DNA from: an uncultured bacterium
GTDB lineage: Bacteria > Patescibacteriota > Patescibacteriia > SG8-24 > DYFX01
Direction: 5' to 3'
DNA length: 64,000 nucleotides
NCBI GenBank assembly: GCA_937900255.1
Contig: CALCDZ010000001.1
Location: 57,988 to 121,987, forward strand
The notes below the pieces were generated by a model. It was not told the origin of the DNA. It did no database searches and saw nothing but the letters and a program-made list of their open reading frames with translations. Of this stretch, positions 23,950 through 41,705 are shown in pieces (positions within the stretch are counted from its first letter, which is position 1; every line of letters starts with the position of its first letter). A program made the position numbers and the translations under genes.

Positions 23950-23958
23950 AGACCCATT

Positions 23959-25771: not shown

Positions 25772-27540
25772 AATCGGATGGACGCCAAGCGTTCTGGCTC
25801 GCGATAGGGATGCCCGCCATCGTCCTGTTGGGATCGCTTTGGATTTGGTCGCAAGACCGGATCTTCAGGGGTACCGTCGTGGCACGCCTGGGCGCTTCCG
25901 TGGAGGCGGCCGCTATCGGAGTCGATCCTGACGCGTTCGGTGTCCTGCAGGCACGTCCTGAAGATGCGTCGACCGGGGAATACGCGAAGCTGCGCGGGCG
26001 GCTGGCCAGCATGGCTAAAGTCTTCAAGAGCGAAGGCGTCCGCGGTTTTTACGTGATGAAAGTAGGCATGGATGAAACGCGCTTTTACGTGGACTCAGCT
26101 CCCGCCGACGACCCATGGCACAGCGAGCCCGGAGTGATCTACCGCGAGCCGCCCGCGGCTGTCGCCGAAGCGTCCACAGGCGGAAAGCTCGTTTTTGCCG
26201 GTCCGTATACCGACGAGTATGGACGGTATTACTCCTCCTTCGTGCCGATTTTTGATCCTTCAGGCAGGGTCGCGGCCGTGATGGGGGCGGATATCGAAGT
26301 CTCAGCCTATGACGCCACGTTGTGGGGCGAGCGCTTGCCGGCGATCGGGGTGACGCTGTTCGCGCTCGCCGTCTGCGTCACGTTCTTCCTGCTCGCGAGC
26401 AAGCGCCGTCAGGAGGTCGCGCTCATCAGGAGGTATACCAAACGGCTGGAGATCCTGATCGATCAGATGCCGGTCGGCATCTTGATCCTGGAAGGCCGCA
26501 AGGGCTTCGCGACCATGTCGAATGAGGCTGCCGTCAGGCTGCTCGGGAAAGAGATCGATTCGACCGCCGCTTCGGGAAATTTCGCGGCGACATACGGTAT
26601 CGTGCGCGAGGACGGAAGCCCGTATCCTGAATCCGACCTTCCGCTCGCCGAGACGATGGCGAACGGCCGTCAAGCCGCAAAGGCGGGCCTGTTCGTGAAA
26701 AGGGGAGGCGTCGAACGACCGCTCGCGATCCGGATGGCCAGCATGCCCATCAGGGACGAGGCGGAAAGGGTCGCGGCGGTCCTTGTGGTGCTGGAGGATA
26801 TGGCCAAGGAGTATGAGATCGACCGTCAGAAGTCCGAGTTCATCTCCATCGCTTCCCATGAGCTGCGGGCGCCTCTCACCGCCATCCGTTGGAATACCGA
26901 CCTTCTCCTGGATAAGACCGAAGGCGCCTTGAATCGGGATCAGCGTGCCTACGCTTCGCATATCAAGGAAATCAACGGACGTCTCGTCAAATTGGTCAAC
27001 GAACTGCTTGATGTCTCGCGGCTGGAAACCGGGACGGTCGGCGTGGCGCCGGTCAAGACGGACGTTTCGGAGCTGCTGGCCCAGACGGTCCAGGACTTCG
27101 CCGGGCTGGCAGGGAAGAAGCGTCAGAAGCTTTCTTACGATCGCGGGAACCTTCCGGAAATCGAACTTGATCCGAGACTCATCCGGGAGGTCGTCACGAA
27201 CTTGGTCTCCAATGCCATCAAGTATACGCCGGAAGGGGGGTCCATCGCCGTCACGGCCGTGGCGGAAGCTTCGGGCATCCGCGTTTCCGTCAGCGACACG
27301 GGCATCGGTATCCCGAAGATCCAACAGGCGCAATTGTTCAAGAAATTCTTCCGCGCCTCGAACGCTTCAGACTTGAATGTCGAGGGGACGGGTCTGGGGC
27401 TCTATATCTGCAAGCAGGCGGTCGAGCTTTCCGGCGGCACGATCGGTTTCCTTTCCGACGAGGGGAAAGGGTCGACGTTCTGGTTCACGCTGCCGTTCAC
27501 GGGAAGCCGGCCCAAAGCGGGGACGAAGAAACTTTCCTGA
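25768..27540 (+). CDS. sensor histidine kinase (periplasmic Cache-like domain, PAS, HisKA, HATPase_c)
   Basis: Two TM segments bracket a ~180-aa extracytoplasmic domain. H-box ISIASHELRAPLTAI. G-boxes GTGLGL. No cognate response regulator is adjacent. Confidence 0.85.
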   Translation: MKSDGRQAFWLAIGMPAIVLLGSLWIWSQDRIFRGTVVARLGASVEAAAIGVDPDAFGVLQARPEDASTGEYAKLRGRLASMAKVFKSEGVRGFYVMKVGMDETRFYVDSAPADDPWHSEPGVIYREPPAAVAEASTGGKLVFAGPYTDEYGRYYSSFVPIFDPSGRVAAVMGADIEVSAYDATLWGERLPAIGVTLFALAVCVTFFLLASKRRQEVALIRRYTKRLEILIDQMPVGILILEGRKGFATMSNEAAVRLLGKEIDSTAASGNFAATYGIVREDGSPYPESDLPLAETMANGRQAAKAGLFVKRGGVERPLAIRMASMPIRDEAERVAAVLVVLEDMAKEYEIDRQKSEFISIASHELRAPLTAIRWNTDLLLDKTEGALNRDQRAYASHIKEINGRLVKLVNELLDVSRLETGTVGVAPVKTDVSELLAQTVQDFAGLAGKKRQKLSYDRGNLPEIELDPRLIREVVTNLVSNAIKYTPEGGSIAVTAVAEASGIRVSVSDTGIGIPKIQQAQLFKKFFRASNASDLNVEGTGLGLYICKQAVELSGGTIGFLSDEGKGSTFWFTLPFTGSRPKAGTKKLS

Positions 27541-27989
27541 TGAAATTCAATAGCCGTCCTTGCGGGACGGCTTGAGAAGCTACAGAAAGTGCGCTTGGAT
27601 GCTCTTCATTCCCAACTCCTTTCCAGAGCGTTTGAGATGTTTTCGTCATGCCGCCCCGCCCCTTGCCAGACCGGGCGAGCGGAGCCGCATGACGTGACGC
27701 TAGAAGAACTGAAATACGACCGATCTTTTCTTTTGCACGGATTCCCCGGCGGGTTGGTGGTGACCGACTTTCGTCGATCGGTTTGGCCATGCGCGAGGAG
27801 AGAGCGGTATGTCCGCTCGCGCCGACCGCTCGTTGATCCCCGGGGTGTTCCCGGTTCGGATGTGAGAGTAGCATATATGGCATTCCCTGTCAAGTCCCGG
27901 ACTGGAGCGGGGCGGTCGTCTCGTGAAACATGAGCTTCCCATCGAATTTCCATCCTGGAATCGCCATTTCCATGAATCAGGTCATCTCG

Positions 27990-28020
27990 GGAAAACAAAA
28001 ATCCCATGAAATCATGGGAT
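27990..28020 (-). terminator. rho-independent terminator downstream of tRNA-Ser (minus strand)
   Basis: Plus-strand ATCCCATG-aaat-CATGGGAT hairpin at 28001-28020, preceded on the plus strand by GAAAACAAAAA (a T-tract on the minus strand). Confidence 0.5.
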
Positions 28021-28025
28021 TCTTG

Positions 28026-28113
28026 TGGCGGAGGGGAGGAGATTCGAACTCCTGATACCTTGCGGTATACTCGCTTTCCAAGCGAGCGCACTCGACCACT
28101 ATGCGACCCCTCC
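28026..28113 (-). tRNA. tRNA-Ser (anticodon GGA), CCA encoded
   Basis: Minus-strand sequence GGAGGGGTCGCATAGTGGTCGAGTGCGCTCGCTTGGAAAGCGAGTATACCGCAAGGTATCAGGAGTTCGAATCTCCTCCCCTCCGCCA. It has a 7-bp acceptor stem, anticodon loop TTGGAAA, a long variable arm and a T-loop TTCGAAT. Confidence 0.85.
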
Positions 28114-28220
28114 GCGGGCGTGGCGGTACGGAGGCAGTCTACCGGATAGCCTTCGTTTGGGCAAGGTGGGTCCGGGCATTGCGCGGACGGGGATTTGCGC
28201 TAGTATGGACGGGAAGCCTT

Positions 28221-30065
28221 ATGACGCCTGCCGAAGAAGTAAAACAGAAGCTGGACCTGACGGAGGTGATCGGTGAGTACGTCCGGCTGCAGCCGGCCGG
28301 CGGCCAATCGCTCCGGGGCCTTTGCCCATTCCATGGCGAGAAGACGCCGAGTTTCTACGCGCATCGCGACAAGCAGTTCTGGCATTGTTTCGGCTGCGGC
28401 GAGGGCGGCGACGTCTATACCTTCTATCAGAAGATCGAAGGCGTGGATTTCCGCGACGCCCTCAAGGAACTGGCCGCCCGTGCAGGCGTGGCGCTGCCGG
28501 AATACGACCCGAAGGCCGACTCCGAGCGGTCGGCCGTGCTGGCCGTCTTGGAAGACGCGGCGAAGTATTATGAGGCCGCGTTGAAGCACGAGACGGTCGG
28601 CGCGCGCGGGCGGTCGTATCTGTCCAAACGGAAACTGAACGCGGCGACCATCGCCGAGTTCCGGCTCGGCTACGCGCCGGCGGCATGGGACGCCCTCGTC
28701 AAGGGCCTGCTCGGCAAAGGGCACATGATCGAGAAGATCGTCGCGGCCGGTCTTGCCATCCCGAGCGACCGCCAACGCAGCCACTACGACCGCTTCCGCG
28801 ACCGCGTCATGGTGCCGCTCATGGATCACAAGGGGACGGTCGTCGGTTTCACCGGCCGCATCCTGCCCGACAGTCCCGAAGCGGACAAGGCGGGCAAATA
28901 CATCAACACGCCAGAAACCGCCGTCTATCGGAAGCGCGAATTGGTCTTCGGGTTTCCGCAGGCCAAGCCGCATATCCGCGCCGCGAACTTCGCCGTCCTG
29001 GTGGAAGGCAACCTGGACGTGATTTCCTCGCACCAGGCGGGAGTCAAGAACGTGGTGGCGATCTCCGGCACCGCGCTCACCGGCGGCCAGCTCAAGCAGC
29101 TCTTCGGGAGCCGCGGCGAGGATGGCGGGCATTTCAAGATCGGCTTGGCTTTCGACAACGACGAGGCGGGACGCAAGACCATGAAGAGCAATCTTCCTGC
29201 CGTGCACGAGGCGCTTCGTGCCGCCTGGGGCAATCACGTCCAGGTCTATGGCTACCTCCTGCCGGACGGCTATAAGGATCCGGACGATCTCATCCAGAAG
29301 GACCCTGAGCTTTGGAAGGCTTTGCTGCGGGAAGCCAAGGATTGGGCCGAGATCTCGTTTTCCTTGGCGATGAAGGACTACGTCCCGCGCGACCCGTACT
29401 CGGCCGGTCGCGTCATCGCGAAGTTCAAGCCGGTGCTCGCGATCTTGCGCGAACAGGATCCGGTCATCTTCGATTTCTGGACGCACCGGTTGGGACAGGC
29501 CCTTGGCGTGACGGATGAGGCGCTCCGGAGGGAAATCGGCCAGGCCTCGGTCCTCGAAGGGCGTTCGCTCGCCATCCCGCAGAATGCCGCCGTGCCGAGG
29601 ATCGAAACGCGCGAGGGGCGGCTGGCCGAACGCCTCTTATGCCTGATGTTGCAGGAGGAGGGGTTCTTCGCCAAGCACATCGGTGCCCTGGATGGCCGTT
29701 TTCCGGAAGGCCCTCTGCGGACTCTAGCGGAAAAAATGAGGGCGTATTATACTGATTTCGGCAAAGCCCCCATCCTTCAAGACGCTTTCATCGCCTGGTA
29801 CTTCGATGCCAGGCTGGCCGATCCGGCACTGCCGGCCCTCGAACCGATCCTGCTTCTCAAGGATCGCGACATGGCCGGATGGACCCCGGAACAACTGGCC
29901 GAAGAAGCGGACGTCTGCGCGCGGGAACTCGAAAAAACCGCGGTCAAGAAGACGGAAAAGGAGCTCGTGGGCGCCCTCGCCGAGGCGGAACAGCGCGGTG
30001 ATCGCGCAGCGGCAACCCAAATCGCCAAACGCCTCGAGGCACTCGCCAAACGCCTGCACAATTGA
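28221..30065 (+). CDS. dnaG: DNA primase
   Basis: Zinc-binding [11 protein letters not shown]...[19 protein letters not shown], about 614 aa. The ORF-track start at 28101 is an upstream extension that overlaps the tRNA. Confidence 0.9.
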
Positions 30066-30094
30066 GACGAGGAGCGTTATTTTTTACGTTACGT

Positions 30095-31348
30095 ATGGCG
30101 AAAGCATCACCGAAAAAGAAGACGTCCAAAAAACCCGTCGTCAAGAAAAAGGCCCCCGTGGCCAAGAAAAAGCCCGCTCCGAAGGAAAAAGCTCCCAAGA
30201 AAGGTCCGGAACCGAAGACGAAGCGCTTGAAAGTCGAACCGCCGGCCATCGAGGCCGTCGACAACCTCTTCAAGAAAGGGTTGGCGCGCGGGTTCGTCAC
30301 CGAGATGGAAATCCTGTCGGTCTTCAACGAGGTGGAGGAATACCTGCCCGTCTATGACGAGTTCCTGAACCGCCTCGACAAAGGCGGCATCCAGATCATC
30401 GAGATGAAGGAAGGCCTGCTCGGGAAGAGCTCCGAGCGCGAAGGCGCCATGGCGATGATCCGCGTCGTCAACAAGGAGAAGGATCTCAAGAGGGACGCCA
30501 AGAAGTCGCCGCTCGACATGGAGATCTCGACCGACTCCATCCAGATGTACCTGCGCGAGATCGGCAAGATCCCGCTCCTCACCGGCGCCGAGGAAGTCGA
30601 GCTCGCCAAGCGCAAGGAGCGCAACGACCGCGAGGCCGAACGCCGCCTGATCGAAGCCAACCTGCGCCTGGTCGTCTCGATCGCCAAGAAGTTCGTGGGC
30701 AAGTCGCTTTCGCTGCTCGACCTGATCCAGGAAGGCAACATCGGCCTCTTCCGCGCGGTCAAGAAGTTCGAATACCGCAAGGGCTACAAGTTCTCGACCT
30801 ACGCCACCTGGTGGATCCGCCAGGCCATCACGCGCGCCTTGGCCGACCAGTCGCGCACCATCCGCATCCCGGTGCACATGGTCGAGACCATCAACCGCTT
30901 CCAGCAGATCGAGCGCCAGCTCATCCAGGACCTCGGCCGCGAGCCGCTGCCGGAAGAGATCGCCGCCGAGATGGGCGAGTCGGTCGAGAAGGTCCGCCAC
31001 ATCATCCAGATCTCGCAGGACACGGTCTCGCTCGAAGCCTCCGTCGGTGAAGACGACGAGGACTCCACGCTCGAGGACTTCATCGAGGACGTGAAGAACG
31101 TCTCTCCCGACCGCGCCGCCGCGCTGCAGCTGCTGCGCGATTACGTCGGAGAGATCACCAAGGACCTCTCGCCCCGCGAGCAGAAGATCCTGGAGATGCG
31201 CTTCGGCCTGACCGACGGCGTCGCCCATACGCTGGAAGAGGTCGGCAAGGAGTTCGACGTCACCCGCGAACGCATCCGCCAGATCGAAGCCAAGGCATTG
31301 GAAAAGATCCAGGCGCACTCGGGCATCGCCCGCCTGCGCGACTATTAG
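30095..31348 (+). CDS. rpoD: RNA polymerase sigma-70 factor RpoD
   Basis: Lys-rich N-terminus. Regions 2-4 ([24 protein letters not shown], and the region 4 HTH). Conserved dnaG-rpoD order. Confidence 0.9.
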
Positions 31349-31357
31349 AACGGATAC

Positions 31358-31396
31358 GGAAAAGGCCCCGGCGGAAGCCGAGGCCTTTTTCTTTCG
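31358..31396. terminator. bidirectional terminator between convergent rpoD and the surface-protein gene
   Basis: GC-rich hairpin AAAGGCCCCGGCGGAAGCCGAGGCCTTT flanked by an A-run on one side and TTTTTCTTTC on the other. Confidence 0.55.
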
Positions 31397-31400
31397 CCGT

Positions 31401-33173
31401 TCAATCCTGATAGCCGGCGGGGCGTTCGCCGTCCTGGAGCGGCGAGCCGATCCGATAATCGGCGAAGAGGCTGACGTCGACGTCACGTACGCGCGTGTTC
31501 CAGGCGGTGCCGTAGAGCGCCTTGGCTTGCGCTTCGGTCTGGACCCAGCGGAGCAGGCCATCGGGCTCGACCGCGTAGGTCTTCGGATCGCTCTGGATCT
31601 TGATCAGGTAGGCGCCTTCGCGCAACCGGACGTTGCCACCGATCACGAGGCCGCTCAGCTGGTCGGCGGGCACGGTGACGACCTTGGAGAAGTCCTGCCC
31701 GAACCAGGACCGATAGCTGGTCTCGTTCGGGAAGACGTAGCGTTTCCCGTTCTTGTACCAGTAGACGGCTGGGGAGGCAGAGGCCTTGATGAGGTCTCCG
31801 TCCTTCAAAGGAAGGAAACCGACGCCCTGCGGCGCCGAAGCCTGGGCGGTGATAGGAGCCGACTCGATTGAGAGGGCATCCTTGACTCCGTCGGAAACGG
31901 CGAAGCGGCAGGTGACGGGAGTCGCGGTCAGGCCTTCTGCCAGCGTCGCCAGGCGCGCCGGTCGGTCGCCGACCACCGTGACGGTGGAGGGCCTGCCTCC
32001 GCAAGAGGCGGTGACGGAGGTCGGCGCCCGGTCGAGTTCAACGGAAACCTGCGCGGCGGAGTCCGTGAGGCGGGCGACGTCGGGTCCAGAGACGACCCTC
32101 GGGGCCGCGGTAGCCGGCGTCGAGATCATCACCGGGCTGACGACCGAAACGTTCATCACTGCGCCGGCGGCGTTCAGCGCTTCGGCCTTGAGCGTGAGCG
32201 CGCCGTTCACGGCGGGCGGATACCAGACGTAGGCGCCGTCGGTCACCGGCCGTTCGACGATGGGGCGATAGCTGCCGCTGCCGTCCGTCGAGTAACTGAG
32301 CCGTACCTTCACGACGCCCGCTTCGTTGGCGTACCAAGCCAGCGGGCTCGGCGCCCCGGCTTGGAAGGACGGAAGGCCATGGGGCGACGTCAAGGCGAAG
32401 ACGGTATCCTTGGAAGGCGTGGGGTCGTTCGAAGTGCCGGTCCGGAAACTGAAAGGATTCGGATAGCTGCCGAGCGCGACGGAGTTCCCGGCCGCGTCCT
32501 TCGCGTCGATCCCGAAAGTTTCGGCCGCTCCGCGCGCGTACGGCGCATGCGAGATCGTCAGTACGTTTCCGGAGAAGGCGTAGCCCCACCCATCAGGATT
32601 CTTTTCGGAGAAGGGGACGACGCTGCCTGACAAGACCGGCTCGCTGAAGGTGAGGACGAGGTCAGCGTCACGCGAAGCGTCGATCGTCCCGGCGGCTGGG
32701 TTGGAGGAAAGCAGCACCGGCGGAGCCTGGTCGATTTCCGTGTCGGAAGCGCCGGTGTCTCCGATGGCGATCGCCGAAAGTTCGGTCGTGCCGTCGCTCA
32801 CGCCCGCGTTCGCGCCCTGTGGCGCATAGGTGACTTCAAAACCCTGGGCAGAAGTCGTGACCGGCAAGCGCGCGTCGGACTCATCCAACGCGATTTCCAG
32901 CGACGCCGGGTCGCCCGAAACGGCCACGAAGGCGGAGCGGACGGCCAACGCCTGCCCTTGATAGCTCACGCCGATCCCTTTCGTGCCGCGAACGCGCCAA
33001 TCCGTCTTAGCGGGGTTGGCGAAGGCGATGACGGCATGGTCGATCCGTCCGTCGTGATTGAGGTCCCGGAGGGCGATGGACGTGACGTTCCCCGCCGCCG
33101 GGGCGGCAAGGGCCGGCAGGGCGGTCACCGCAAGCAAGGCGGCGAAAGAGCCCAAAAGAAGTTTGTTGCGCAT
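31401..33173 (-). CDS. secreted surface protein with Ig-like regions and a C-terminal ~100-aa domain shared with two other proteins in the window
   Basis: Start at MRNKLLLGSFAALLAVTALPALAA (signal peptide); the ORF-track start at 33329 is an extension. The C-terminus (AVYWYKNGKRYVFPNETSYRSWF...KIQSDPKTYAV...LRWV) matches domains in 54059-56668 and 49982-51391. Confidence 0.65.
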   Translation of the reverse strand: MRNKLLLGSFAALLAVTALPALAAPAAGNVTSIALRDLNHDGRIDHAVIAFANPAKTDWRVRGTKGIGVSYQGQALAVRSAFVAVSGDPASLEIALDESDARLPVTTSAQGFEVTYAPQGANAGVSDGTTELSAIAIGDTGASDTEIDQAPPVLLSSNPAAGTIDASRDADLVLTFSEPVLSGSVVPFSEKNPDGWGYAFSGNVLTISHAPYARGAAETFGIDAKDAAGNSVALGSYPNPFSFRTGTSNDPTPSKDTVFALTSPHGLPSFQAGAPSPLAWYANEAGVVKVRLSYSTDGSGSYRPIVERPVTDGAYVWYPPAVNGALTLKAEALNAAGAVMNVSVVSPVMISTPATAAPRVVSGPDVARLTDSAAQVSVELDRAPTSVTASCGGRPSTVTVVGDRPARLATLAEGLTATPVTCRFAVSDGVKDALSIESAPITAQASAPQGVGFLPLKDGDLIKASASPAVYWYKNGKRYVFPNETSYRSWFGQDFSKVVTVPADQLSGLVIGGNVRLREGAYLIKIQSDPKTYAVEPDGLLRWVQTEAQAKALYGTAWNTRVRDVDVSLFADYRIGSPLQDGERPAGYQD

Positions 33174-33262
33174 ATGCCCATATCTTAGCAGTTTTTCCGA
33201 GACATGGCACATCCACGTTTGAAACGCTGTCCCGACCTTTAAATATGAGGTGCACAGGGGCC

Positions 33263-33291
33263 TTGATGCGCTCGGGCCCCTCGTGTATAGT
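33263..33291 (+). promoter_or_regulatory. sigma-70-like promoter for tRNA-Asn (TTGATG-N17-TATAGT)
   Basis: TTGATG at 33263-33268, a 17-nt spacer, TATAGT at 33286-33291, about 38 nt upstream of the tRNA 5' end. Confidence 0.5.
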
Positions 33292-33329
33292 GTGCCTGGT
33301 ACCGACCGCCCATCCGGGGCGTGAGCCAT

Positions 33330-33404
33330 TCCGAGGTAGCTCAGCGGTAGAGCAGTGGACTGTTAATCCATTGGTCCTGGGTTCGAATCCCAGCCTCGGA
33401 GCCA
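33330..33404 (+). tRNA. tRNA-Asn (anticodon GTT), CCA encoded
   Basis: TCCGAGGTAGCTCAGCGGTAGAGCAGTGGACTGTTAATCCATTGGTCCTGGGTTCGAATCCCAGCCTCGGAGCCA. Acceptor TCCGAGG/CCTCGGA, anticodon loop CTGTTAA, T-loop TTCGAAT. Confidence 0.85.
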
Positions 33405-33441
33405 TGAGCAGGCGTGTGGGGCGACCCACGTGCTTGGTCAA
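33394..33441 (+). repeat. 48-bp direct repeat copy 1 (tRNA-Asn 3' end plus 37 nt downstream)
   Basis: cctcggagccatgagcaggcgtgtggggcgacccacgtgcttggtcaa. Copy 2 at 35157-35204 is identical except for one mismatch. Confidence 0.75.
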
Positions 33442-33443
33442 AA

Positions 33444-33478
33444 GCCAGCCAAAAAATTGGCTGGCTTTTGTGTTTTTT
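33444..33478 (+). terminator. rho-independent terminator after tRNA-Asn
   Basis: GCCAGCCAA-aaaa-TTGGCTGGC hairpin followed by TTTTGTGTTTTTT. Confidence 0.6.
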
Positions 33479-33708
33479 AGGTCGTTCGGATTAGCGACCT
33501 GAACCAGTGTGATTTCGCATTGGAAACGCACCCACGTGGGAATCAAGAACTTTAACCTTATTTCCTGGTTCGAATCCCACGTGTTTTCACGCGCCGTCAC
33601 TGCATGACCTCGGGCGCATTGGTTGACCCAATGCATCAGAAAAGCTACTCTTAAAGGAGGATTTCCAACGTAATTCGATATAGCACCTATTTTGCAAATG
33701 ATAATGTT

Positions 33709-34305
33709 ATGAAGCGAGCATATATTTTGCTGCTTGTCGTTACGTATAGCCTTGGACTGATCGGGGTGACATCCTGGTTTTGGTTGCGGCAAAATCGGAA
33801 TAATCAAACCGGATCTTCCTGCTTCGACTCCGCGATTTTTTGCAGGCCCGCGGAATACATGGCGGAGGACGGCATCGTTTATGCTCATCTGCGTCGGGGC
33901 GAAGAGGAGGCAATGATTGAACGTATCCGCGAGTATTACACTGCAGACTATCGCAAGACGCTACCTAAGAAGTTCGAAGCGGAATTGACCTCTGCCGATA
34001 CTCCTCAGGAAAAGCAAAAGTACGCAGACGCCCTTGCGTCCCTGAAAAAGTGGATTGACGTGGATACGTCCTTTAGCGCGCCTCGTACTTATAAGGACTT
34101 GGACGGCGTCGTGGCTGTGGTCACGGGCGCCTCGGCATTCGTACCGGGCGTAGGATACGTTGAGTCGAGAGCTAACGTTTTTTTCTTCCGCCGCGATGAT
34201 ACGTCGTACCGGCTCGCGGCTGTCACGCCCGTCGGGGAAGATGCAAGGACGTATGAATCGGCGCCGGTCGACATGTTCAAGAGGGGTGTGGGGGCTATAG
34301 AATAG
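33709..34305 (+). CDS. hypothetical membrane-anchored protein (island cargo)
   Basis: 198 aa with an N-terminal TM helix. It sits in an AT-richer segment and is convergent with the CHAP-like gene. Confidence 0.5.
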   Translation: MKRAYILLLVVTYSLGLIGVTSWFWLRQNRNNQTGSSCFDSAIFCRPAEYMAEDGIVYAHLRRGEEEAMIERIREYYTADYRKTLPKKFEAELTSADTPQEKQKYADALASLKKWIDVDTSFSAPRTYKDLDGVVAVVTGASAFVPGVGYVESRANVFFFRRDDTSYRLAAVTPVGEDARTYESAPVDMFKRGVGAIE

Positions 34306-34360
34306 CTTACCGAACAAAAAAGAGGCATTCTGACAGTGGATGCCTCTGATGATCTCGATC

Positions 34361-35041
34361 CTAGTACGTGTACGTGGCCTTGAGCCTGAATCCCTGGAAG
34401 ATGACGTTGGGGAAATAGTTCTGCCGTACCTGCCTGAGTGACATGTCGCCACAACGATTCGTCGTGTGCGCGGCGAGCCAGACGTCGTCCCCGTTTTGTC
34501 CCGTCACGAAGTAGGCGTGATCCCAGCTGCCGTCTCCGGTCCAGTCCGCTAGGATCACATCCCCGGCATAGAAGCGCGGAATGGTCGAGAGGCTCTGTGG
34601 AATGGACACGGCGCCATATGTCCTTCCGGAGTTAAGCATGAAGGTGCGGAACTCGCTGACACCGGCCCAGGAGTTGCTTCGGTTGTGATCACCGGCGCTG
34701 AGGTAGTACCAGGCATCGCTACACCACCAACACGTTCCGCCGACCGGCTGCCAACCGCCGAATGCGAGTGCTTGAGACACGAAGTTGGTGCAGTCGCTTG
34801 AGTATGCCTCGTAAGCCTTGTTGTACCCAGTGGTGAGTGACGTGTTGGTTATTCCGCAGTAGTGCAGCGCGTACGTGACTGCGGAACTCGCGGAATAGGT
34901 GCCGGTCGTGACCGACTGCACCACGGACCCCGTGTCGCTGCCGTCGCTGTCTCCGGACGTCGAGGCGTCCATGTCGGCAACGCACGACATCGATACCGAT
35001 CCAATGAGCGCGAAGACCAAAAGAGCTGTTCCTAGTCGCAT
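34361..35041 (-). CDS. secreted CHAP/NlpC-P60-like cysteine amidase (putative peptidoglycan hydrolase)
   Basis: Signal peptide MRLGTALLVFALIGSVSMSC. Cys motif SDCTNFVSQALAFGGW and downstream His GSWDHAYFV give the papain-fold Cys/His arrangement. RBS GGAAGAGGA before ATG 35041; an alternative start is at 35059. Confidence 0.55.
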   Translation of the reverse strand: MRLGTALLVFALIGSVSMSCVADMDASTSGDSDGSDTGSVVQSVTTGTYSASSAVTYALHYCGITNTSLTTGYNKAYEAYSSDCTNFVSQALAFGGWQPVGGTCWWCSDAWYYLSAGDHNRSNSWAGVSEFRTFMLNSGRTYGAVSIPQSLSTIPRFYAGDVILADWTGDGSWDHAYFVTGQNGDDVWLAAHTTNRCGDMSLRQVRQNYFPNVIFQGFRLKATYTY

Positions 35042-35156
35042 CTGTCCTCTTCCTTTCATGCAATGCCATCGACACTATGTCGATGCGGGAGGAGACTAGC
35101 ACGCGGTTGGCGTTGGCGTCAACCGTGCCTAGGGACTCCAGTGGGAATCGCTACCT

Positions 35157-35204
35157 GGGAGCCATGAGCAGGCGTGTGGGGCGACCCACGTGCTTGGTCA
35201 ATAG
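35157..35204 (+). repeat. 48-bp direct repeat copy 2 (att-like duplicate of the tRNA-Asn 3' end)
   Basis: cctgggagccatgagcaggcgtgtggggcgacccacgtgcttggtcaa, preceded by a degenerate T-arm-like gggaatcgctacc. Confidence 0.75.
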
Positions 35205-35250
35205 ATCATCAAATCATTGGTGGGCTGTTGACTGATAGCAACACGAGTCT

Positions 35251-35847
35251 ATGTGGTTCCACAAGGAGGAAAACCAAATAGATAAAATGTCAAAAGTTTT
35301 TATTGACGAATTTCCTTCTTGGGCGATTAAGCACTCGGCCAAATTGATTTCGGAACTTAAGGAATCACGAAACGAGTATGAGAAGAGTTGGGCCAATCTT
35401 CTCAAGGAACAAAATGCACTTGGAGATACTCTAATTGATTATTTTACGGCCGCGCACGCCATCTACATCAATTCACTGCCTGATGCTTATATTCAATTAT
35501 TGGGAGGTGGCAAAAAAATTGCATCAGCGCTCTCCCTGTGGCCAAGTCGATCCCAAAACTTTTTCCTAATAGCATCGAAGTTCCATCAAAAAGTTTCGTC
35601 TGATGTAGGTCGCGGCGGCAAGAGTTCACTGGTTGAATCATTTGAAAAAGTGTTTTCAAGCGGTGGAAATCTTGAACCCTTGGCTGTGCACATCAGCACT
35701 GCAATTGCGCATTCAATTTCCCAAGAAATGGGCGTGGACACAGATGACCCATTTTCAGCTGCAGGCCTATACTCAACTCTTTTTCGATTATCGCAGGAGC
35801 AACTGGAGTGGGTTTCCAGCCACATTATCAAGCGGGATGCCCGTTGA
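35251..35847 (+). CDS. hypothetical all-alpha protein, low-GC orphan gene
   Basis: 198 aa with markedly AT-rich coding sequence. Lies between the tRNA-end repeat (35157-35204) and the R-M flanking repeat (35935). No family recognised. Confidence 0.5.
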   Translation: MWFHKEENQIDKMSKVFIDEFPSWAIKHSAKLISELKESRNEYEKSWANLLKEQNALGDTLIDYFTAAHAIYINSLPDAYIQLLGGGKKIASALSLWPSRSQNFFLIASKFHQKVSSDVGRGGKSSLVESFEKVFSSGGNLEPLAVHISTAIAHSISQEMGVDTDDPFSAAGLYSTLFRLSQEQLEWVSSHIIKRDAR

Positions 35848-35934
35848 GACCCAAGTACGGCAGTGGCCCACAAATTGACCCCTTCAAAAGCCCTAAGGTG
35901 CCCACAGGAATTGGGCACCAGACCCACCAGCGGA

Positions 35935-36040
35935 GCCAGCAAGACCCATCACGCAAGTGGCGGGTCTTTGCTTTCCGTAAGTCGATTTCCCTTTGGGGGT
36001 GTCGTCTGCTAAAATTGGTCAACATCAGCCAAGGCCGCCT
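35935..36040 (+). repeat. ~105-bp imperfect direct repeat, copy A (immediately upstream of hsdM)
   Basis: gccagcaagacccatcacgcaagtggcgggtctttgctttccgtaagtcgatttccctttgggggtgtcgtctgctaaaattggtcaacatcagccaagg... is about 90% identical to copy B. Confidence 0.75.
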
Positions 36041-36070: not shown

Positions 36071-37522
36071 ATGTTCGAGCAAGCCTTCAAGAACATCGAC
36101 GACATCCTCCGCACGGATTCCGGTTCGGCTACGGAGCTGGACTACGTGGAGCAGACTTCCTGGATCATTTTCCTGAAGTACCTGCATGACCTGGAGCTCG
36201 AGAACGCGAAGAAGGCGGAGCTCTCCGGCAAGAAGCACGAGCATACCTTTGAACCGAAGTTCCGCTGGGATACCTGGGCCTGCCCACGGACACCCGACGG
36301 CAAGATCGACCACCATAAAGCGCTCGACGGTAAGGACCTCAAGGAGTTCGTCGACGAAAAGCTTTTCCCGTACCTCAAGAAGTTCAAGAGCGCAGATCCG
36401 GACACCGTCGAATACAAAGTCGGTGAGATCTTCAGCGAACTCAAGAATAAAATCACGAGCGGCTACAAGCTCCGCGAGATTTTGAACATCGTCTGCGATT
36501 TGCACTTCCAGCGTAGCGAGGAGAAGCATGAGCTCTCGCATCTGTACGAGGCCCGAATCGCCAAGATGGGCAACGCGGGACGGAACGGCGGCGAGTACTA
36601 CACGCCTCGCCCCCTCATCCGCACCATCGTGCAAGTGGTCAGGCCTGAAATCGGCGACAAGATCTACGACGGCGCCTGCGGCTCAGCCGGCTTCCTGGTC
36701 GAGGCCTTCAAGTACCTGACGGAAAACAGCGCCAAGCTCTCCACGGCCGAAATGCGCACGCTCCAGACCAAGACCTTCTACGGCAAGGAGATCAAGTCCT
36801 TGGCCTACATCATCGGCGTGATGAACATGATCCTGCACGGGGTCGAGGCGCCGCACATCCGGCACATGGACACGCTGTCCCAGAACGTCAACGACATCCA
36901 GGAGAAGGACCGCTTCGAGGTCATCCTGGCCAACCCGCCGTTCGGCGCCGGTATCGGCAAGGAAGTCCAGCAGAACTTCCCGATCAAGACCGGCGAGACG
37001 GCCTACCTGTTCCTCCAGCACTTCATCAAGAGCCTCAAGGCCGGCGGCCGGGCGGGCATCGTCATCAAGAACACCTTCCTTTCCAACACCGATGACGCCT
37101 CCGTGCGCCTGCGCAGGCACTTGCTTGAGAGCTGCAATCTCCACACCGTGCTGGACTTGCCGGGCGGCGTCTTTTCAGGCGCTGGGGTGAAAACTGTGGT
37201 GCTGTTCTTCGAGAAAGGCGCGCCCACCAAGAAGGTCTGGTACTACCAGCTCAAGCTCGACCGCAATCTCGGCAAGACCAACCCGATCAACGAGAAGGAT
37301 CTGGCGGACTTCGTGAAGCTCCAGAAGACCAAGGCCGATTCCTCCAACGCCTGGTCGGTCAAGGTTTCGGATCTCGATCAGGAAACGCTTGATTTGTCGG
37401 TGAAGAACCCTAAGGGCACCGAGACTGTCGCGCACCGCAGCCCCAAGGACATTCTCAAGGAGATGGTGAAATTGGATGCAGAGAGCGCGAAAGCGTTGGC
37501 TGGTATCAAGGGGTTGCTATGA
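36071..37522 (+). CDS. hsdM: type I restriction-modification system methyltransferase subunit
   Basis: MFEQAFKNIDDILRTDSG... N-terminus. N6-adenine MTase motif NPPFG. AdoMet motif DGACGSAGFL. Confidence 0.9.
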   Translation: MFEQAFKNIDDILRTDSGSATELDYVEQTSWIIFLKYLHDLELENAKKAELSGKKHEHTFEPKFRWDTWACPRTPDGKIDHHKALDGKDLKEFVDEKLFPYLKKFKSADPDTVEYKVGEIFSELKNKITSGYKLREILNIVCDLHFQRSEEKHELSHLYEARIAKMGNAGRNGGEYYTPRPLIRTIVQVVRPEIGDKIYDGACGSAGFLVEAFKYLTENSAKLSTAEMRTLQTKTFYGKEIKSLAYIIGVMNMILHGVEAPHIRHMDTLSQNVNDIQEKDRFEVILANPPFGAGIGKEVQQNFPIKTGETAYLFLQHFIKSLKAGGRAGIVIKNTFLSNTDDASVRLRRHLLESCNLHTVLDLPGGVFSGAGVKTVVLFFEKGAPTKKVWYYQLKLDRNLGKTNPINEKDLADFVKLQKTKADSSNAWSVKVSDLDQETLDLSVKNPKGTETVAHRSPKDILKEMVKLDAESAKALAGIKGLL

Positions 37523-38679
37523 GTGGTGAGTGGCCCACGAGAAAATTGGGCGCTGTTTTGCAGATAATCAATGGTTACGCGTTTGATTCCAAACATTTTG
37601 ATGCCACAAATGGAATGCCGCTGATTAGGATCCGTGATTTAAAATCTGGTACTCACACGGAAACGCGATTTGCAGGGGCATACGACAAAAAATATATAGT
37701 TAAAGCAGGAGATTTGCTCATTGGAATGGATGGTGAGTTTGGTTGCTACGAATGGGGTGGTGAACCCGGCTTATTAAATCAGCGAGTATGCAAGTTACAG
37801 TCGTTTGCAACATCGCTAGCGCCGCGCTTCTTATTTTACGGAGTTAACAGTTACCTTAAGGACATTGAGAATGAGACTGGATATACCACAGTAAAGCACC
37901 TGTCTTCAAAACAAATCCTCGACATCGAATTTCCAATTCCGCCGCTACCGGAGCAACGGCGGCTCATTAAGTTACTCGACCAAGCTTTTTTGGATATCGC
38001 CATCGCCAAGGCGAATGCCGAAAGGAACTTGCAAAATGCGCGCGATCTTTTTGAGAGCCGTCTCAATGAGATTTTTACCAAGCGGGGACTGGGGTGGGTG
38101 GAAAAACGGCTCGATCAGATTGGAACAACACAAACCGGTTCGACTCCGTCGACTTCCGATAAAGAAAACTACGGCAACTTCATTCCTTTTATAAAGCCGG
38201 CAGACTTTAATGAAGATGGCTCATTGAACTATGGCAATGCTGGTCTTACCGAAAAGGGATTATTGAAAGCGCGCAAAGTGCGAGCTGGATCAGTCCTAAT
38301 GGTGTGCATCGGTGCGACTATCGGGAAATGTGGTTATTGTGATCGTGATGTAACCACAAATCAGCAAGTTAACTCACTCACCCCATTCAAAGGTACTTTC
38401 TACAAGCTTGTTTATTATCAGATGCGTACCAGAGACTTTCAAAGACGCATGCTTTTGAGTTCTGCTCAGGCCACGTTGCCGATAATAAACAAGTCTAAGT
38501 GGGAGGCTTTAACAATTTTGCTGCCACAAAAGACGGGAGAACAATCACGTATCGTTATGGAGCTGGCCGGCTTGGACAAAGAAGCAGCCCGCCTCAAGTC
38601 CACCTATCAGAAAAAGCTCCACGCATTGGAAGCGCTAAAGAAATCCTTGCTCAACAAGGCTTTTCGTGGTGAGCTGTAG
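37519..38679 (+). CDS. hsdS: type I restriction-modification system specificity subunit
   Basis: 386 aa with two target-recognition-domain halves separated by conserved helical repeats. ATGA overlap with hsdM. AT-rich relative to hsdM and hsdR. Confidence 0.85.
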   Translation: MSGEWPTRKLGAVLQIINGYAFDSKHFDATNGMPLIRIRDLKSGTHTETRFAGAYDKKYIVKAGDLLIGMDGEFGCYEWGGEPGLLNQRVCKLQSFATSLAPRFLFYGVNSYLKDIENETGYTTVKHLSSKQILDIEFPIPPLPEQRRLIKLLDQAFLDIAIAKANAERNLQNARDLFESRLNEIFTKRGLGWVEKRLDQIGTTQTGSTPSTSDKENYGNFIPFIKPADFNEDGSLNYGNAGLTEKGLLKARKVRAGSVLMVCIGATIGKCGYCDRDVTTNQQVNSLTPFKGTFYKLVYYQMRTRDFQRRMLLSSAQATLPIINKSKWEALTILLPQKTGEQSRIVMELAGLDKEAARLKSTYQKKLHALEALKKSLLNKAFRGEL

Positions 38680-38685
38680 GCGCAT

Positions 38686-40989
38686 ATGAACGAAGCCGAA
38701 ACGCGCGCGGAATACGTCGACCCCAAGCTTAAGGCGAGCGGGTGGGGCGAAATCGAAGGATCGAAGGTCCTGCGCGAGTTTCGGATCACCGAGGGCAAGA
38801 TCCAGACGGGCGGCACGCGCGGGAAGCCGGAGATCGCCGATTATGTGCTGGTCTACAAGAACCGCAAGCTCGCCGTCGTCGAAGCTAAACCGGAAGGGAT
38901 GGAGGCGACGGAGGGCGCAGTCCAGGCCAAGGCCTATGCGGCGAAGCTCGGTTTGGAATACACCTACGCCACCAATGGTCGGGACATCTACGAGGTGTCG
39001 ATGAAGACCGGGCACGAAGGTGCCGTGGGCAGCTTCCCGACGCCTGACGAACTCTGGGCCCGCACCTTCGCCGAGCAGAACGCCTGGCGCGAGAAGTTCG
39101 CCGCCGTCCCGACGGAGGGCGAAAAGGGCCGCCGGTATTATCAGGAGCTGGCCATTGACAACGCGCTCGAGGCCGTGGCCGAGGGCAAGAAGCGGATCCT
39201 GGTGACCATGGCCACCGGTACCGGCAAGACGGCCGTGGCGGCGCAGTTCTCCTGGAAGCTGTTCCAGTCGCGTTGGAACCTCCGGGGCGACGGCGCGCGC
39301 CGGCCGAGGATCCTGTTCCTGGCCGACCGCAACATCCTCGCGGACCAGGCCTTCACGAACGACTTCGCGATCTTCGAGCGCGACGCCCGGGTGCGCATCA
39401 ACCCGCTCGACATCCGCAAGAAGGGCGGCGTGCCGACCGGCGGCAGCGTCTTCTTCACCATCTTCCAGACGTTCATGAGCGGGCCGGGCGATACGCCGTA
39501 CTTCGGCGAGTACCCGCCGGATTTCTTCGACCTCGTCATCATCGACGAGTGCCATCGCGGCGGCGCCAACGACGAGGGCAACTGGCGCGGCATCTTGGAA
39601 TACTTCGCCCCGGCCGTGCAGCTCGGTCTGACGGCGACGCCGAAGCGCAAGGACAACGTGGATACTTATAGATATTTCGGCGAGCCGGTCTACACGTATT
39701 CCCTCAAACAAGGCATCAATGACGGCTTCCTGACGCCGTTCAAGGTCAAGCGCATTCAGACGACGCTGGACGAGTACGTCTACACCTCGGACGACCAGGT
39801 CATCGAGGGCGAAGTCGAGGAGGGCAAGATCTACGAGGAAGTTGACTTCAACAGGATCATCTTCATCAAGGAACGCGAAGCCAAGCGCGTGCGCATCGTG
39901 CTGGACGAGATCGACCAGGACGAGAAGACGATCGTCTTCTGCGCGACCCAGGACCACGCCTTGGCCGTCCGCGACCTGATCAACCAATACAAGGACAGCC
40001 GAGACCCGAATTACTGCGTCCGCGTGACCGCCAACGACGGCGCGCGCGGCGAGCAGTTCCTGCGGGAGTTCCAGGACAACGAGAAGACCATCCCGACCGT
40101 CCTGACCACTTCGCAGAAGCTCTCGACGGGCGTGGACGCCCGCAACGTCCGCAACATCGTGCTGATGCGGCCGGTCAACTCCATGATCGAGTTCAAGCAG
40201 ATCATCGGGCGCGGCACGCGGCTTTTCGACGGCAAGGAGTATTTCACCATCTACGACTTCGTCGACGCCTATCACCACTTTTCGGACCCGGAGTGGGACG
40301 GCGAACCGATCGAGGAAACGGAAGAGAAACCCCGCCACTCCAAGGAGTCCCAAGGAGATCCCAAGAAACCGCGCCAGGTGTCCGAACAGCCGGAAGACCA
40401 GCCGGCGAAAAAGCTTCGGATCAAGTTGCGTGACGGCAAGGAACGCGAGATCCAGCACATGATCTCGACCTCGTTCTGGAGCGCCGACGGCAAACCGCTT
40501 TCGATCCAGGAGTTCATGGACAACCTGTTCGGGGCGATGCCTGAGTTCTTCAGAGACGAGGAGGAGCTCCGCAAGATCTGGTCCGACCCGCGCACGCGCC
40601 AGGCCTTCCTCGATAAGATCGCAGAACTCGGCTACGGCAAGGATGCGCTGGAGACGCTCCAGAAGATGATCGACGCTGAGGACAGTGACCTGTTCGACGT
40701 GCTTTCGTATGTCTCGTTCCTGACGCCGCCGATCACGCGCGAGGAGCGCGTCAGCCACGCGAAGGATCGCATCTACCAAGGCCTCGGCGAACTCCAGCAG
40801 GATTTCCTCGGGTTCGTCCTCGGGAAGTACGAGGAGAGCGGGGTCGACGAGCTCGGCGAGCACCAACTGCCGATCCTGCTGAACCTGAAATACCAGGCCA
40901 TCGCTGACGCCGAGCAGGCGCTCGGGAATGTCGGCACAATCCGCACGCTCTTCCTGGATCTGCAGAGGAAGCTGTATGCTAAGATGTGA
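38686..40989 (+). CDS. hsdR: type I restriction enzyme R subunit (shorter than usual at 767 aa)
   Basis: N-terminal MNEAETRAEYVDPKLKASGW, helicase motifs ATGTGKT and DECHRG, then a C-terminal helical region. Confidence 0.85.
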   Translation: MNEAETRAEYVDPKLKASGWGEIEGSKVLREFRITEGKIQTGGTRGKPEIADYVLVYKNRKLAVVEAKPEGMEATEGAVQAKAYAAKLGLEYTYATNGRDIYEVSMKTGHEGAVGSFPTPDELWARTFAEQNAWREKFAAVPTEGEKGRRYYQELAIDNALEAVAEGKKRILVTMATGTGKTAVAAQFSWKLFQSRWNLRGDGARRPRILFLADRNILADQAFTNDFAIFERDARVRINPLDIRKKGGVPTGGSVFFTIFQTFMSGPGDTPYFGEYPPDFFDLVIIDECHRGGANDEGNWRGILEYFAPAVQLGLTATPKRKDNVDTYRYFGEPVYTYSLKQGINDGFLTPFKVKRIQTTLDEYVYTSDDQVIEGEVEEGKIYEEVDFNRIIFIKEREAKRVRIVLDEIDQDEKTIVFCATQDHALAVRDLINQYKDSRDPNYCVRVTANDGARGEQFLREFQDNEKTIPTVLTTSQKLSTGVDARNVRNIVLMRPVNSMIEFKQIIGRGTRLFDGKEYFTIYDFVDAYHHFSDPEWDGEPIEETEEKPRHSKESQGDPKKPRQVSEQPEDQPAKKLRIKLRDGKEREIQHMISTSFWSADGKPLSIQEFMDNLFGAMPEFFRDEEELRKIWSDPRTRQAFLDKIAELGYGKDALETLQKMIDAEDSDLFDVLSYVSFLTPPITREERVSHAKDRIYQGLGELQQDFLGFVLGKYEESGVDELGEHQLPILLNLKYQAIADAEQALGNVGTIRTLFLDLQRKLYAKM

Positions 40990-41120
40990 CGACGTGGGTA
41001 CGATCGTCGATTGCTGATTCGCCGGAATCAATAAACCGAATCCGCCCCTGTGAGGCGGGGGAGATGGACGTACTCGGCCTGTCTCCGTATCGAGGTTTCA
41101 ACGTCCTCCACGACGTGGAA

Positions 41121-41226
41121 GCCAGCAAGACACATCACGCAAGTGGTGTGTTTTGCTTTCCATAAGTCGATTTCCCTTTGGGGGTGTCGTCTGCTAAAAT
41201 TAGTCGACATCAGCCAAGACGCATTT
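41121..41226 (+). repeat. ~105-bp imperfect direct repeat, copy B (immediately downstream of hsdR)
   Basis: gccagcaagacacatcacgcaagtggtgtgttttgctttccataagtcgatttccctttgggggtgtcgtctgctaaaattagtcgacatcagccaagac... Confidence 0.75.
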
Positions 41227-41240: not shown

Positions 41241-41705
41241 GTGAAGGTTCATGGTCAACCTTATGAAACGGTGCCGTATATTCACATGACCAAAAGCCCC
41301 CTCAAAAATATACCTGCCGATTTTCGTAAAGCACTTGCGGCTGCGCCCAAAGCCAGGGAGCAATGGGAATCGTTGACGGCGATCGCGCGGAGGGATTTCA
41401 TCAGTTGGATCGCATCGGCCAAGCAAGAGAAGACGCATGCGCGTCGGATCGAGGTGGCGTGTTCGAAGCTTGCCGCCGGGCAGCGTCGTCCTTGCTGCTA
41501 CGCGGTCGTGCCGATGGATCTTTATAAGGCGCTTGCCACGGCGCCGAAGGCCAGGACGCAGTGGAGCGGCCTCACGCCGGATGAGCGCCGGGATCTTGTC
41601 GGTTGGATCGGGATATCCGGGAAACCGGGGGCGAGGGTGGGCCGAATCGCCGAAGCTTGCGCGATGCTCGCAGCCAGGAAAAGACGTTTTAAACCAGCGA
41701 AATAG
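41241..41705 (+). CDS. YdeI/OmpD-associated-family-like protein with an internal duplication
   Basis: Two ~55-aa repeats (ALAAAPKAREQWESLTAIARRDFISWIASAK / ALATAPKARTQWSGLTPDERRDLVGWIGISGK). GTG start at 41241; an alternative ATG is at 41286. Confidence 0.5.
   Translation: MKVHGQPYETVPYIHMTKSPLKNIPADFRKALAAAPKAREQWESLTAIARRDFISWIASAKQEKTHARRIEVACSKLAAGQRRPCCYAVVPMDLYKALATAPKARTQWSGLTPDERRDLVGWIGISGKPGARVGRIAEACAMLAARKRRFKPAK

Follow-up and report, generated by a model that had tools for sequence, protein, structure and literature searches.

What kind of event leaves a copy of the end of a tRNA gene standing 1760 nt downstream of the gene itself? The question is raised by a 64,000-nt stretch of DNA from an uncultured member of the Patescibacteria (contig CALCDZ010000001.1; the whole stretch is referred to here as the window), in which the 3′ end of a tRNA-Asn gene and the sequence following it recur as a direct repeat. 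A preliminary description regarded this repeat as the footprint of site-specific integration at the tRNA gene, possibly as part of a composite island that runs into a neighboring restriction-modification (R-M) cassette. The first proposal is borne out by further fragments of the tRNA end, by the differing content found at this place in relatives, and by recombined junction arms; the second is taken up with the R-M genes below. About four modules lie in tandem between 33405 and ~41750, next to the tRNA-Asn 3′ end. With moderate confidence, we read the repeat as one junction in a tandem array of integrative modules, lacking a recombinase of their own, that accreted at this site.

The tRNA-Asn (GTT) gene (33330–33404, forward strand) is intact and encodes its CCA end (ARAGORN; Rfam, 74.9 bits). 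The loci used for comparison are numbered L001–L016 (L002 is from the same organism), with relatives found via a Big_5 protein and a degenerate DNA pattern among them; loci from IMG/VR are L017–L076. In these relatives the tRNA-Asn is identical or nearly so to the window copy (100% in L003, L004, and L006). The 44-mer GGAGCCATGAGCAGGCGTGTGGGGCGACCCACGTGCTTGGTCAA occurs at exactly two sites, 33398–33441 and 35158–35201, and was recovered in 0 of 100 shuffles; within the window, the repeat is not one of a generic repeat family. The repeat of 48 bp with one mismatch is real: positions 33394–33441 match 35154–35201 (offset 1760) at 47 of 48 positions, with C33397 versus G35157 as the sole mismatch, while the second copy had originally been placed at 35157–35204, a shift of 3 nt. 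A repeat search gives 86 nt at 83% identity (33385–33470 vs 35145–35230), and the weaker in-register homology spans the T-loop to the end of the terminator. From 33380 to 33479, the matches per 20 nt are 13, 20, 20, 12, and 10 relative to a background of 5.4 ± 2.0. A degenerate T-arm-like sequence does precede the second copy, as had been noticed before (GAATCGCTACCT vs GAATCCCAGCCT). The possibility that this copy represents a full-length pseudo-tRNA was considered and rejected: clear homology covers only the last ~25 nt, the rest of the tRNA yields 25/64 ungapped matches to the DNA upstream of copy 2 (p ~0.014), and the local alignment is not significant. The exact 44-mer was found in neither IMG/VR nor JGI metagenome contigs; a degenerate version of the pattern matched L008–L010 in metagenomes and gave no match in IMG/VR.

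The repeated unit is composed of the tRNA-Asn 3′ end and a conserved trailer of 37 nt. These 37 nt, which the preliminary description simply counted as part of the repeat, are predicted to form a hairpin (H) that is common to relatives. Copy 1 of H (33405–33441, forward strand) has a 12-bp stem and a GCGA loop (−23.7 kcal/mol, z = −4.75). H is kept in L004, L006, L008–L013, and L016, even where no tRNA stands ahead of it. Its identity to the window copy is 36/37 in L004, L008, L009, and L010, 35/37 in L011, and 31/37 in L006, and the loop differs in L006, L012, and L016. At a site in L013 that corresponds to copy 2, H is identical to that of the window (37/37) and the adjoining coding DNA is only 73% identical. 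Hence, the perfect identity of the two H copies in the window can be put down to constraint on H and not to recent duplication. Covariation in the stem is weak (one pair, A-U/G-U/G-C) and does not exceed the shuffle control, and Rfam holds no family for H or for the conserved left-end block discussed below, even at E up to 1. H is followed by an intrinsic terminator of either type A (GCCAGCC stem) or type B (GACCCATCAC stem). In the window, terminator A comes after the first H (33439–33478, forward strand; 14-bp stem and T-run in a terminator scan), and its stem is also present in L004, L008, L012, L013, and L016. The second H (35165–35201), identical to the first, is followed by a decayed B-type terminator (H and terminator together 35165–35232, forward strand). 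At the equivalent place, L009 carries an intact B terminator.

If H is under constraint, where is the boundary of the mobile DNA? In the sequences compared, the boundary common to all junctions is the last 8 nt of the tRNA, CGGAGCCA, referred to as the core. Four tRNA-end cores are present within 8 kb, all in one orientation (forward strand), and each is followed by one of two left arms. Arm H comprises the hairpin and its terminator, while arm T comprises GCAAGA, a terminator, and a TGCTAnAAT promoter-like element. Ahead of the core stands either the tRNA or one of three right arms (R1, R2, R3). Core copy 1 (CGGAGCCA, 33397–33404) is the tRNA-Asn end itself and leads into H (tRNA|core|H, at 33397). 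Core copy 2 (GGGAGCCA, 35157–35164) forms the R1|core|H junction (35157). Its right arm R1 (35137–35156) is the degenerate T-arm TCCAGTGGGAATCGCTACCT, and the sequence GAATCGCTxCxx is found ahead of the core in L009, L011, L013, and L015. Core copy 3 (CGGAGCCA, 35931–35938) forms R3|core|T (35931); the R3 arm (35886–35930) has 45 homologous nt ahead of CGGAGCCA in L013 (position 774) and L016 (position 9218). Core copy 4 (TGGAAGCCA, 41116–41124) has a 1-nt insertion and forms R2|core|T (41116), where R2 (41026–41115) is conserved over ~90 nt in relatives and ends in GTCCTCCACGACG. An intact tRNA gene at one boundary and direct repeats of its 3′ end at the distal boundaries (35157, 35931, and 41116) are features of tRNA-associated islands. 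The same is true for the base composition: the GC content is 0.61–0.67 over the window and drops to 0.49–0.58 at 33–39 kb (~0.63 elsewhere).

Modules 1–3 have a core on both sides and no recombinase among their cargo, in keeping with cis-mobilizable segments and accretion. Module 1 (H...R1) encodes a hypothetical protein with an N-terminal hydrophobic segment (33709–34305, forward strand; no Pfam or PHROG match), which is called as 148 aa from 33859 in an assembly in the European Nucleotide Archive (ENA) and belongs to a block with homologues in L011, L013, and L016. It also encodes a secreted Amidase_6 protein (34361–35059, reverse strand; PF12671, E = 1.8e-24), whose database entry has 226 aa and starts at 35041, with homologues that are 71–78% identical. 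Module 2 (H...R3) holds a single hypothetical gene without a family match (35251–35847, forward strand), the likely start being at 35288 after AAGGAGG. Module 3 (T...R2) is a complete type I R-M operon (36071–40989, forward strand) with hsdM (36071–37522), hsdS (37519–38679), and hsdR (38686–40989). The Pfam matches are N6_Mtase (2e-62) and HsdM_N, Methylase_S (2.8e-37), and ResIII (3e-34) together with Helicase_C and EcoEI_R_C. All three type I subunits are present, HsdM, HsdS, and HsdR, and HsdS has two Methylase_S stretches. The GC content of hsdM and hsdS is 0.51–0.57 relative to ~0.63 for the genome.

That the island continues into the R-M genes, as the preliminary description had suspected, is seen from the cores CGGAGCCA at 35931 and TGGAAGCCA at 41116, each followed by a ~100-nt repeat; this pair of T arms brackets hsdMSR. 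The first T arm (35939–36033, forward strand) consists of GCAAGA, a B-type terminator hairpin (−20.1 kcal/mol), and a 65-nt block, and the second (41125–41218, forward strand) has a hairpin of −26.9 kcal/mol. As a direct repeat, the two match over 35 nt at 89% and 67 nt at 96% with a spacing of 5185/5186 nt. The B-type terminator (35941–35972) was spotted through comparison with L011. The block in the first copy holds TGCTAAAAT (36007–36015), which faces hsdM and which may be an extended −10-like promoter element; its equivalent in L009/L010 would be TGCTATAAT. Beyond the last T arm follows an OmdA/YdeI-family gene (41286–41705, forward strand; PF13376, E = 1.4e-33) that constitutes either module 4 or native flank. 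No repeat marks the right limit of the array, which ends ahead of polysaccharide-synthesis genes (Polysacc_synt, 41780–43219).

The same parts recur in relatives in other combinations. Across nine loci, the junction pairs tRNA|H, tRNA|T, R1|H, R2|H, R2|T, and R3|T are found, and only the 8-nt core is common to all of them. The cargo varies between ends of the same type. Modules of type T...R2 carry the type I R-M operon in the window, a creatininase gene in L008, and a 149-aa open reading frame (ORF) in L013; H...R1 modules carry the hypothetical protein and amidase in the window and PAS and Fic proteins in L009; H...R3 modules carry the ORF without family in the window, a zeta toxin in L013, and a 49-aa ORF in L016. 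R2, conserved over ~90 nt, has six occurrences (window, L001, L008, L013 twice, and L016), each with different cargo. The 13-mer GTCCTCCACGACG at its end is identical ahead of the core in L008 and L016, and single-mismatch variants are present in L013 and L001. R3 is conserved over ~45 nt in its three occurrences (window, L013, and L016).

Among these loci, L008 is the closest relative of the window (rpoD, 89% nt identity). A different first module stands where the window has module 1: tRNA-Asn|core|T is followed by the creatininase gene, R2, and core|H with terminator A. This 0.9-kb module is flanked by an 8-bp repeat only. L009 and L010 share the module 1 architecture (core, H, terminator A, left-end block, cargo, R1, core, H, and intact terminator B) with the PAS and Fic proteins as cargo. 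L013 has four junctions in 7 kb (R2|T, R1|H, R3|T, and R2|T), and its cargo includes the amidase block and the zeta toxin. In L016, the amidase block ends in R2 rather than R1 and is followed by core|H and then by R3|core|T. A contig search with the Big_5 protein returned one locus, the non-syntenic L001, which is informative only for its R2|core|T junction; this junction pattern is absent from IMG/VR. Comparison with empty sites had been proposed at the outset, and L006, a different species, provides a candidate: the tRNA, H, and terminator are followed by ordinary unrelated genes, with no second core within 10 kb. The content following the same tRNA also differs among L003, L004, L006, L008, L009, L011, and L012, which represent different species and not alleles of one species.

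The independent pairing of right and left arms, with the core as the only shared part, argues for site-specific recombination at the core. Free arm pairing is the signature expected if an attP-like site (R|core|L) recombines with an attB-like site (tRNA|core|trailer). We consider it likely that the crossover takes place at the 8-nt core. In the proposed model, each junction is built from a family-specific right arm (R1, R2, or R3), the core CGGAGCCA, and a left arm (H or T). A circular module carrying right arm, core, and left arm would recombine at the tRNA core or at a core copy already in place. Integration would rebuild the tRNA end, provide it with a terminator, and push older modules outward, such that the newest module is nearest the tRNA. 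The left arm would bring a terminator for the upstream DNA, and the T arm would in addition bring a promoter-like element facing the cargo. Read in this way, the window would comprise module 1 (H...R1), module 2 (H...R3), module 3 with the type I R-M operon (T...R2), and then a T arm with the OmdA-family gene. The recombinase would act in trans or have been lost.

Which enzyme might act at the core? The preliminary description pointed to a tyrosine integrase as the enzyme to look for and noted that no integrase is present. The absence is confirmed, since no integrase, resolvase, or transposase domain was detected in ~48 ORFs of ≥120 aa across the window (Pfam/NCBIfam), so an island-encoded integrase, a usual component of tRNA islands, is missing here; as to the type of enzyme, a large serine recombinase (LSR) is more likely. 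In L003, L004, L011, and L012, LSR elements are situated immediately 3′ of tRNA-Asn in the same orientation. Each has one or two large defense-type genes (KAP NTPase; Gabija-like OLD-family nuclease and UvrD helicase; PHP/SMC ATPase; a 1264-aa protein) followed by the LSR gene on the strand opposite the tRNA, and the elements in L003 and L012 also have terminase-like and ParB/methyltransferase genes. The four LSRs carry Resolvase, Recombinase, and Zn_ribbon_recom domains, and those of L003 and L004 are 59% identical. In L003, the foreign DNA starts directly after CGGAGCCA. This LSR family is very large in Patescibacteria, with 60 relatives on IMG/VR contigs. A tRNA gene lies to the right of the LSR gene in 16 of the IMG/VR loci, and in all 16 the closest one (Ser, Asp, Gln, Glu, Arg, or Trp) is encoded on the other strand and points its 3′ end toward the LSR; the four tRNA-Asn cases have the same geometry. 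This fixed geometry argues that the LSR family integrates at tRNA 3′ ends, and the data suggest an LSR clade with this mode of integration. As the best candidate for the enzyme we tentatively name the LSR family that adjoins tRNA-Asn in the four relatives.

A more far-reaching version of the model would have the clade use the tRNA-Asn 3′ end as an integron-like platform for gene capture, with the three mini-module families, which encode no recombinase, being inserted, cut out, and reshuffled at the core by an LSR from resident prophage-like elements. The left arm would then serve as a terminator for upstream DNA and, through TGCTAnAAT, as a promoter for its own cargo, and H would be a binding site for the recombinase or an accessory factor. 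We regard this version as rather doubtful.

Several observations weigh against the accretion of integrative modules as set out above. No recombinase could be tied to the core sequence, and none is encoded in the window. The LSR island of L011 is flanked not by the core but by a 41-nt, 90% identical repeat of terminator B (ATCAAAGACCCATCACGAAAGTGGTGGGT; 7775–7815 and 14060–14100), a sequence that elsewhere is the T-type left arm. Convincing tRNA-end repeats within 10 kb were found neither in the 16 LSR-bearing viral contigs nor in L003 or L004. Neither an excised circle nor an attP form was found, with the 44-mer as query in IMG/VR and JGI metagenome contigs and the R2|core|T pattern in IMG/VR. 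The window, L013, and L016 have their junction types in a similar order, the amidase block being followed by an H module with R3 at its end and then by a T module with R2 at its end; swapping of cargo by homologous recombination would produce this order as well. Moreover, with repeats of ~100 nt, the left arms offer enough length for RecA-type recombination.

Module 1 itself may be a fixed, vertically inherited remnant, and its age belongs among these points. Positions 33620–35191 of the window align at 72% identity over 1.6 kb to L011 and at 73% to both L013 and L016 (genes only in the latter), and in all three the block occupies other positions in the array. For comparison, the window and L011 are 73–79% identical in rpoD/dnaG and 66% in the Big_5 protein. 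Module 1 is consequently about as diverged as core genes (72% vs 66–79%), which indicates long residence in the array. In L011, an island of 6.3 kb encoding a PHP/SMC-type ATPase and an LSR lies between tRNA-H-terminator and the module 1 block, and the two H copies have drifted apart (85% over 54 nt). This arrangement fits the insertion of a newer element proximal to module 1, as the rule that the newest module is nearest the tRNA would have it. Separately, a 146-nt direct repeat (99%; L011 5725–5870 and 7587–7732) brackets the hypothetical protein and amidase block in L011. It consists of the 3′ end of a NUDIX gene and a terminator and represents a second duplication of a gene 3′ end around the module 1 block.

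The main rival to accretion by site-specific integration is cassette exchange, in which DNA taken up from relatives would recombine homologously via the conserved junctions, with gene conversion and without any site-specific recombinase. It would account for repeats that reach ~90–100 nt past the core, a length sufficient for RecA-type recombination, for the similar junction order that the window, L013, and L016 have despite differing cargo, for H being 37/37 identical between the window and L013 where the neighboring DNA is 73% identical, and for a window devoid of a recombinase. In addition, the window encodes parts of a type IV pilus (PilB-like, PilM, and prepilin peptidase); type IV pili in Patescibacteria are thought to serve DNA uptake. 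Cassette exchange does not explain, however, why every junction starts exactly at the last 8 nt of the tRNA, why R2 pairs with both H and T, why the L008 module has an 8-bp repeat only, or where the tRNA-end fragments originate. On balance, we judge it unlikely.

The architecture could also be the same and the enzyme a tyrosine recombinase supplied by the host in trans, either Xer-like or an unlinked tyrosine integrase, for which H would be an imperfectly palindromic 11-6-11 binding site. H can be written as CAGGCGTGTGG-GGCGAC-CCACGTGCTTG, a dif-like geometry, and it is conserved without a tRNA ahead. An identical core of 8 nt is typical of the overlap regions of tyrosine recombinases, and modules without their own recombinase are reminiscent of integrative mobile elements exploiting Xer (IMEX) and of pdif modules. 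However, LSRs such as Bxb1 also have common cores of ~8 bp, the T-type junctions are devoid of any H, and neither the window nor any neighboring locus examined showed a tyrosine recombinase, while LSRs recur at tRNA-Asn. We find this enzyme assignment quite improbable. Least probable by far is a local segmental duplication by slippage or unequal crossing-over, with copy 2 as a decayed duplicate of the tRNA-Asn 3′ region and no mobile DNA: in-register homology over ~95 nt that decays on both sides, the weak in-register similarity to the whole tRNA noted above, and the age of the block, common to L011, would suit it, but four cores with three unrelated right arms cannot stem from one duplication, the same arms occur with other cargo and in other combinations in at least eight other loci, and the L008 module is flanked by 8 bp only.

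Accretion of integrative modules at the core, the reading we prefer, has its nearest described case in the ssrA genomic islands (GIs) of Dehalococcoides. These are tandem islands, each bounded by a 20-bp repeat of the tmRNA gene 3′ end, with a conserved motif ahead of each repeat and, near attL, a serine recombinase resembling CcrB; fifteen of the islands lack an integration module and were read as possible cis-mobilizable elements formed by accretion (McMurdie et al. 2011, PMC3146451). Both systems are tandem islands at the gene of a small RNA, bounded by repeats of its 3′ end, and in both each repeat is preceded by a short conserved motif that has no match in the gene. In the integrase-bearing ssrA-GIs, the LSR is near attL on the opposite strand, accompanied by ParB-like and methyltransferase genes, an arrangement to be compared with that of L012. 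The present array has tRNA-Asn as its target where the ssrA-GIs have tmRNA, its core measures 8 nt as opposed to 20 bp, and its host belongs to another phylum. Its modules are 0.8–5 kb long, often with one gene, and form three families with conserved arms of ~50–100 nt. The window itself has no recombinase and, unlike the Dehalococcoides islands, no CcrB-like LSR beside attL; LSRs are present in L003, L004, L011, and L012, and their connection to the core is conjectural.

The concept of cis-mobilizable elements (CIMEs) and accretion is likewise cited in PMC3146451. The CIMEs of Streptococcus ICE/IME systems and the composite islands of the staphylococcal cassette chromosome (SCC) at rlmH/orfX are segments flanked by att sites without integrase or transfer genes, as seen here. 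Autonomous elements with the same att site adjoin these segments in tandem or occupy the same site, and the arrays grow by successive site-specific integration. SCC elements employ large serine recombinases (Ccr) and 15–18-bp repeats. Relative to both, the array is distinguished by its Patescibacteria host, by arms with an apparent pair of terminator and promoter, and by junctions that reassort (three right and two left types), while mobilization in trans would be by analogy. Classical tRNA islands with P4-type tyrosine integrases, e.g., those at enterobacterial asn-tRNA, share the intact tRNA, the 3′-end repeat, the atypical GC content, and the accessory or defense cargo. In contrast to those, neither the window nor the islands examined in relatives have a tyrosine integrase, the elements are very small and stand in arrays, and the tRNA contributes only 8 (to 11) nt to a repeat that is mostly trailer. 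Integron cassettes and Acinetobacter pdif modules are also small, often single-gene units without a recombinase, split by conserved hairpin-forming sites, and the same sites flank many cargo genes, as in the array. This is a resemblance of design and not of membership: the array has neither intI/attI nor the attC architecture, and its core is derived from a tRNA. Nor does it conform to IMEX/pdif modules, since a 28-bp XerC/XerD site (11-6-11) is not present at every boundary, the junctions at 35931 and 41116 being without H.

The preliminary description also drew attention to CCCACGTG in both repeat copies and near 33563–33583 and took it for a possible part of the recombination core. The motif is indeed present at these places, with six occurrences in the window versus 2.1 expected, five of which are at 33425, 33531/33533, 33576, and 35185. 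It is not the crossover core: it belongs to the 3′ arm of H and to the left-end block and would at most be an accessory site. This conserved block, ACCCACGTGGGAA...GGTTCGAATCCCACGTG (33520–33585, forward strand), is what the preliminary description called a tRNA-like fragment; it holds two extra CCCACGTG motifs and is 86% identical to L009 130–186, while the flanking spacer is not conserved. A related motif, ACCCAnnTGGGAAnnnnGAACT, comes after the terminator in L001, L007, and L008. CACGTGGGAATC (33531–33540) and GAATCCCACGTG (33572–33583) form an 11/12 inverted repeat around the block (−21.4 kcal/mol, z = −3.3); its pairing is not conserved in L009, whereas the primary sequence is.

The tRNA-Asn gene has a further peculiarity in some relatives. 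In L008 (1759–2380), L007 (98–711), and L010 (48–466), the anticodon loop is split by an insertion of 275–540 nt. The insertions give sub-threshold, full-length matches to the Rfam group I intron (L010, E = 2e-5; L007, E = 9.5e-4). The one in L008 contains an ORF with an HNH-like CxxC...H..H motif, as judged by eye, and Pfam gave no match on the long ORF there. The tRNA-Asn of the window has no intron.

The genes beside the array include ligA, gatA, lgt, a histidine kinase gene, tRNA-Ser, dnaG, rpoD, and the gene for the Big_5 protein, and gatC is called beside gatA in the ENA contig of the same organism. The Big_5 protein, secreted and Ig-like (31401–33176, reverse strand), precedes tRNA-Asn. 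Its homologues are from metagenome-assembled genomes of Patescibacteria, and contigs at NCBI (143.6 kb) and ENA (24 kb, corresponding to window 21401–34459) encode identical copies. The latter contig, NODE_667 (L002), is an independent assembly whose break at window position 34459 falls inside the 3′ end of the amidase gene, away from any repeat. A structural variant was not deduced from it, and the break could reflect low coverage or strain heterogeneity within module 1. A tRNA-Val(GAC) called at 42628–42701 by ARAGORN only is inside the Polysacc_synt/flippase ORF (41780–43219) and has no Rfam match at the gathering score. It is probably a false positive and was not used as a boundary. Farther to the left, a 1474-aa protein with five acidic double-disulfide repeats (NF033662; 3943–8367) adjoins the type IV pilus genes, i.e., PilM (8321–9499), a PilB-like ATPase (11271–13025), and a prepilin peptidase (16402–17457). 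Two further ORFs beside them have prepilin-type N-methylation motifs. At the left edge of the window is a small ORF with an RNase H/RVT_3 domain (249–752).

What does the locus mean for these bacteria? The build-up of tRNA-linked islands from accreted, att-flanked islets is already known, and the form encountered here is unusually modular. Mobile DNA in Patescibacteria (the candidate phyla radiation, CPR) is poorly charted, and the means by which genomes of ~1 Mb acquire defense and accessory genes are of practical interest. The locus is compact and apparently reusable, with modules of single-gene to operon size and conserved ends stacked at one tRNA gene, and, depending on the genome, an R-M system, a zeta toxin, a Fic protein, a creatininase, or a cell-wall amidase is encoded between such ends. 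For annotation in this clade, CGGAGCCA followed by an H or T arm delimits islets. Were the array a fixed remnant, it would be an ordinary decayed tRNA island. If the LSR family is the enzyme, tRNA 3′ ends would join the known LSR targets and provide natural attB/attP pairs with short cores. Should the tRNA-Asn 3′ end in fact function as a gene-capture platform, it would be a swap-shop for defense and accessory genes in very small genomes.

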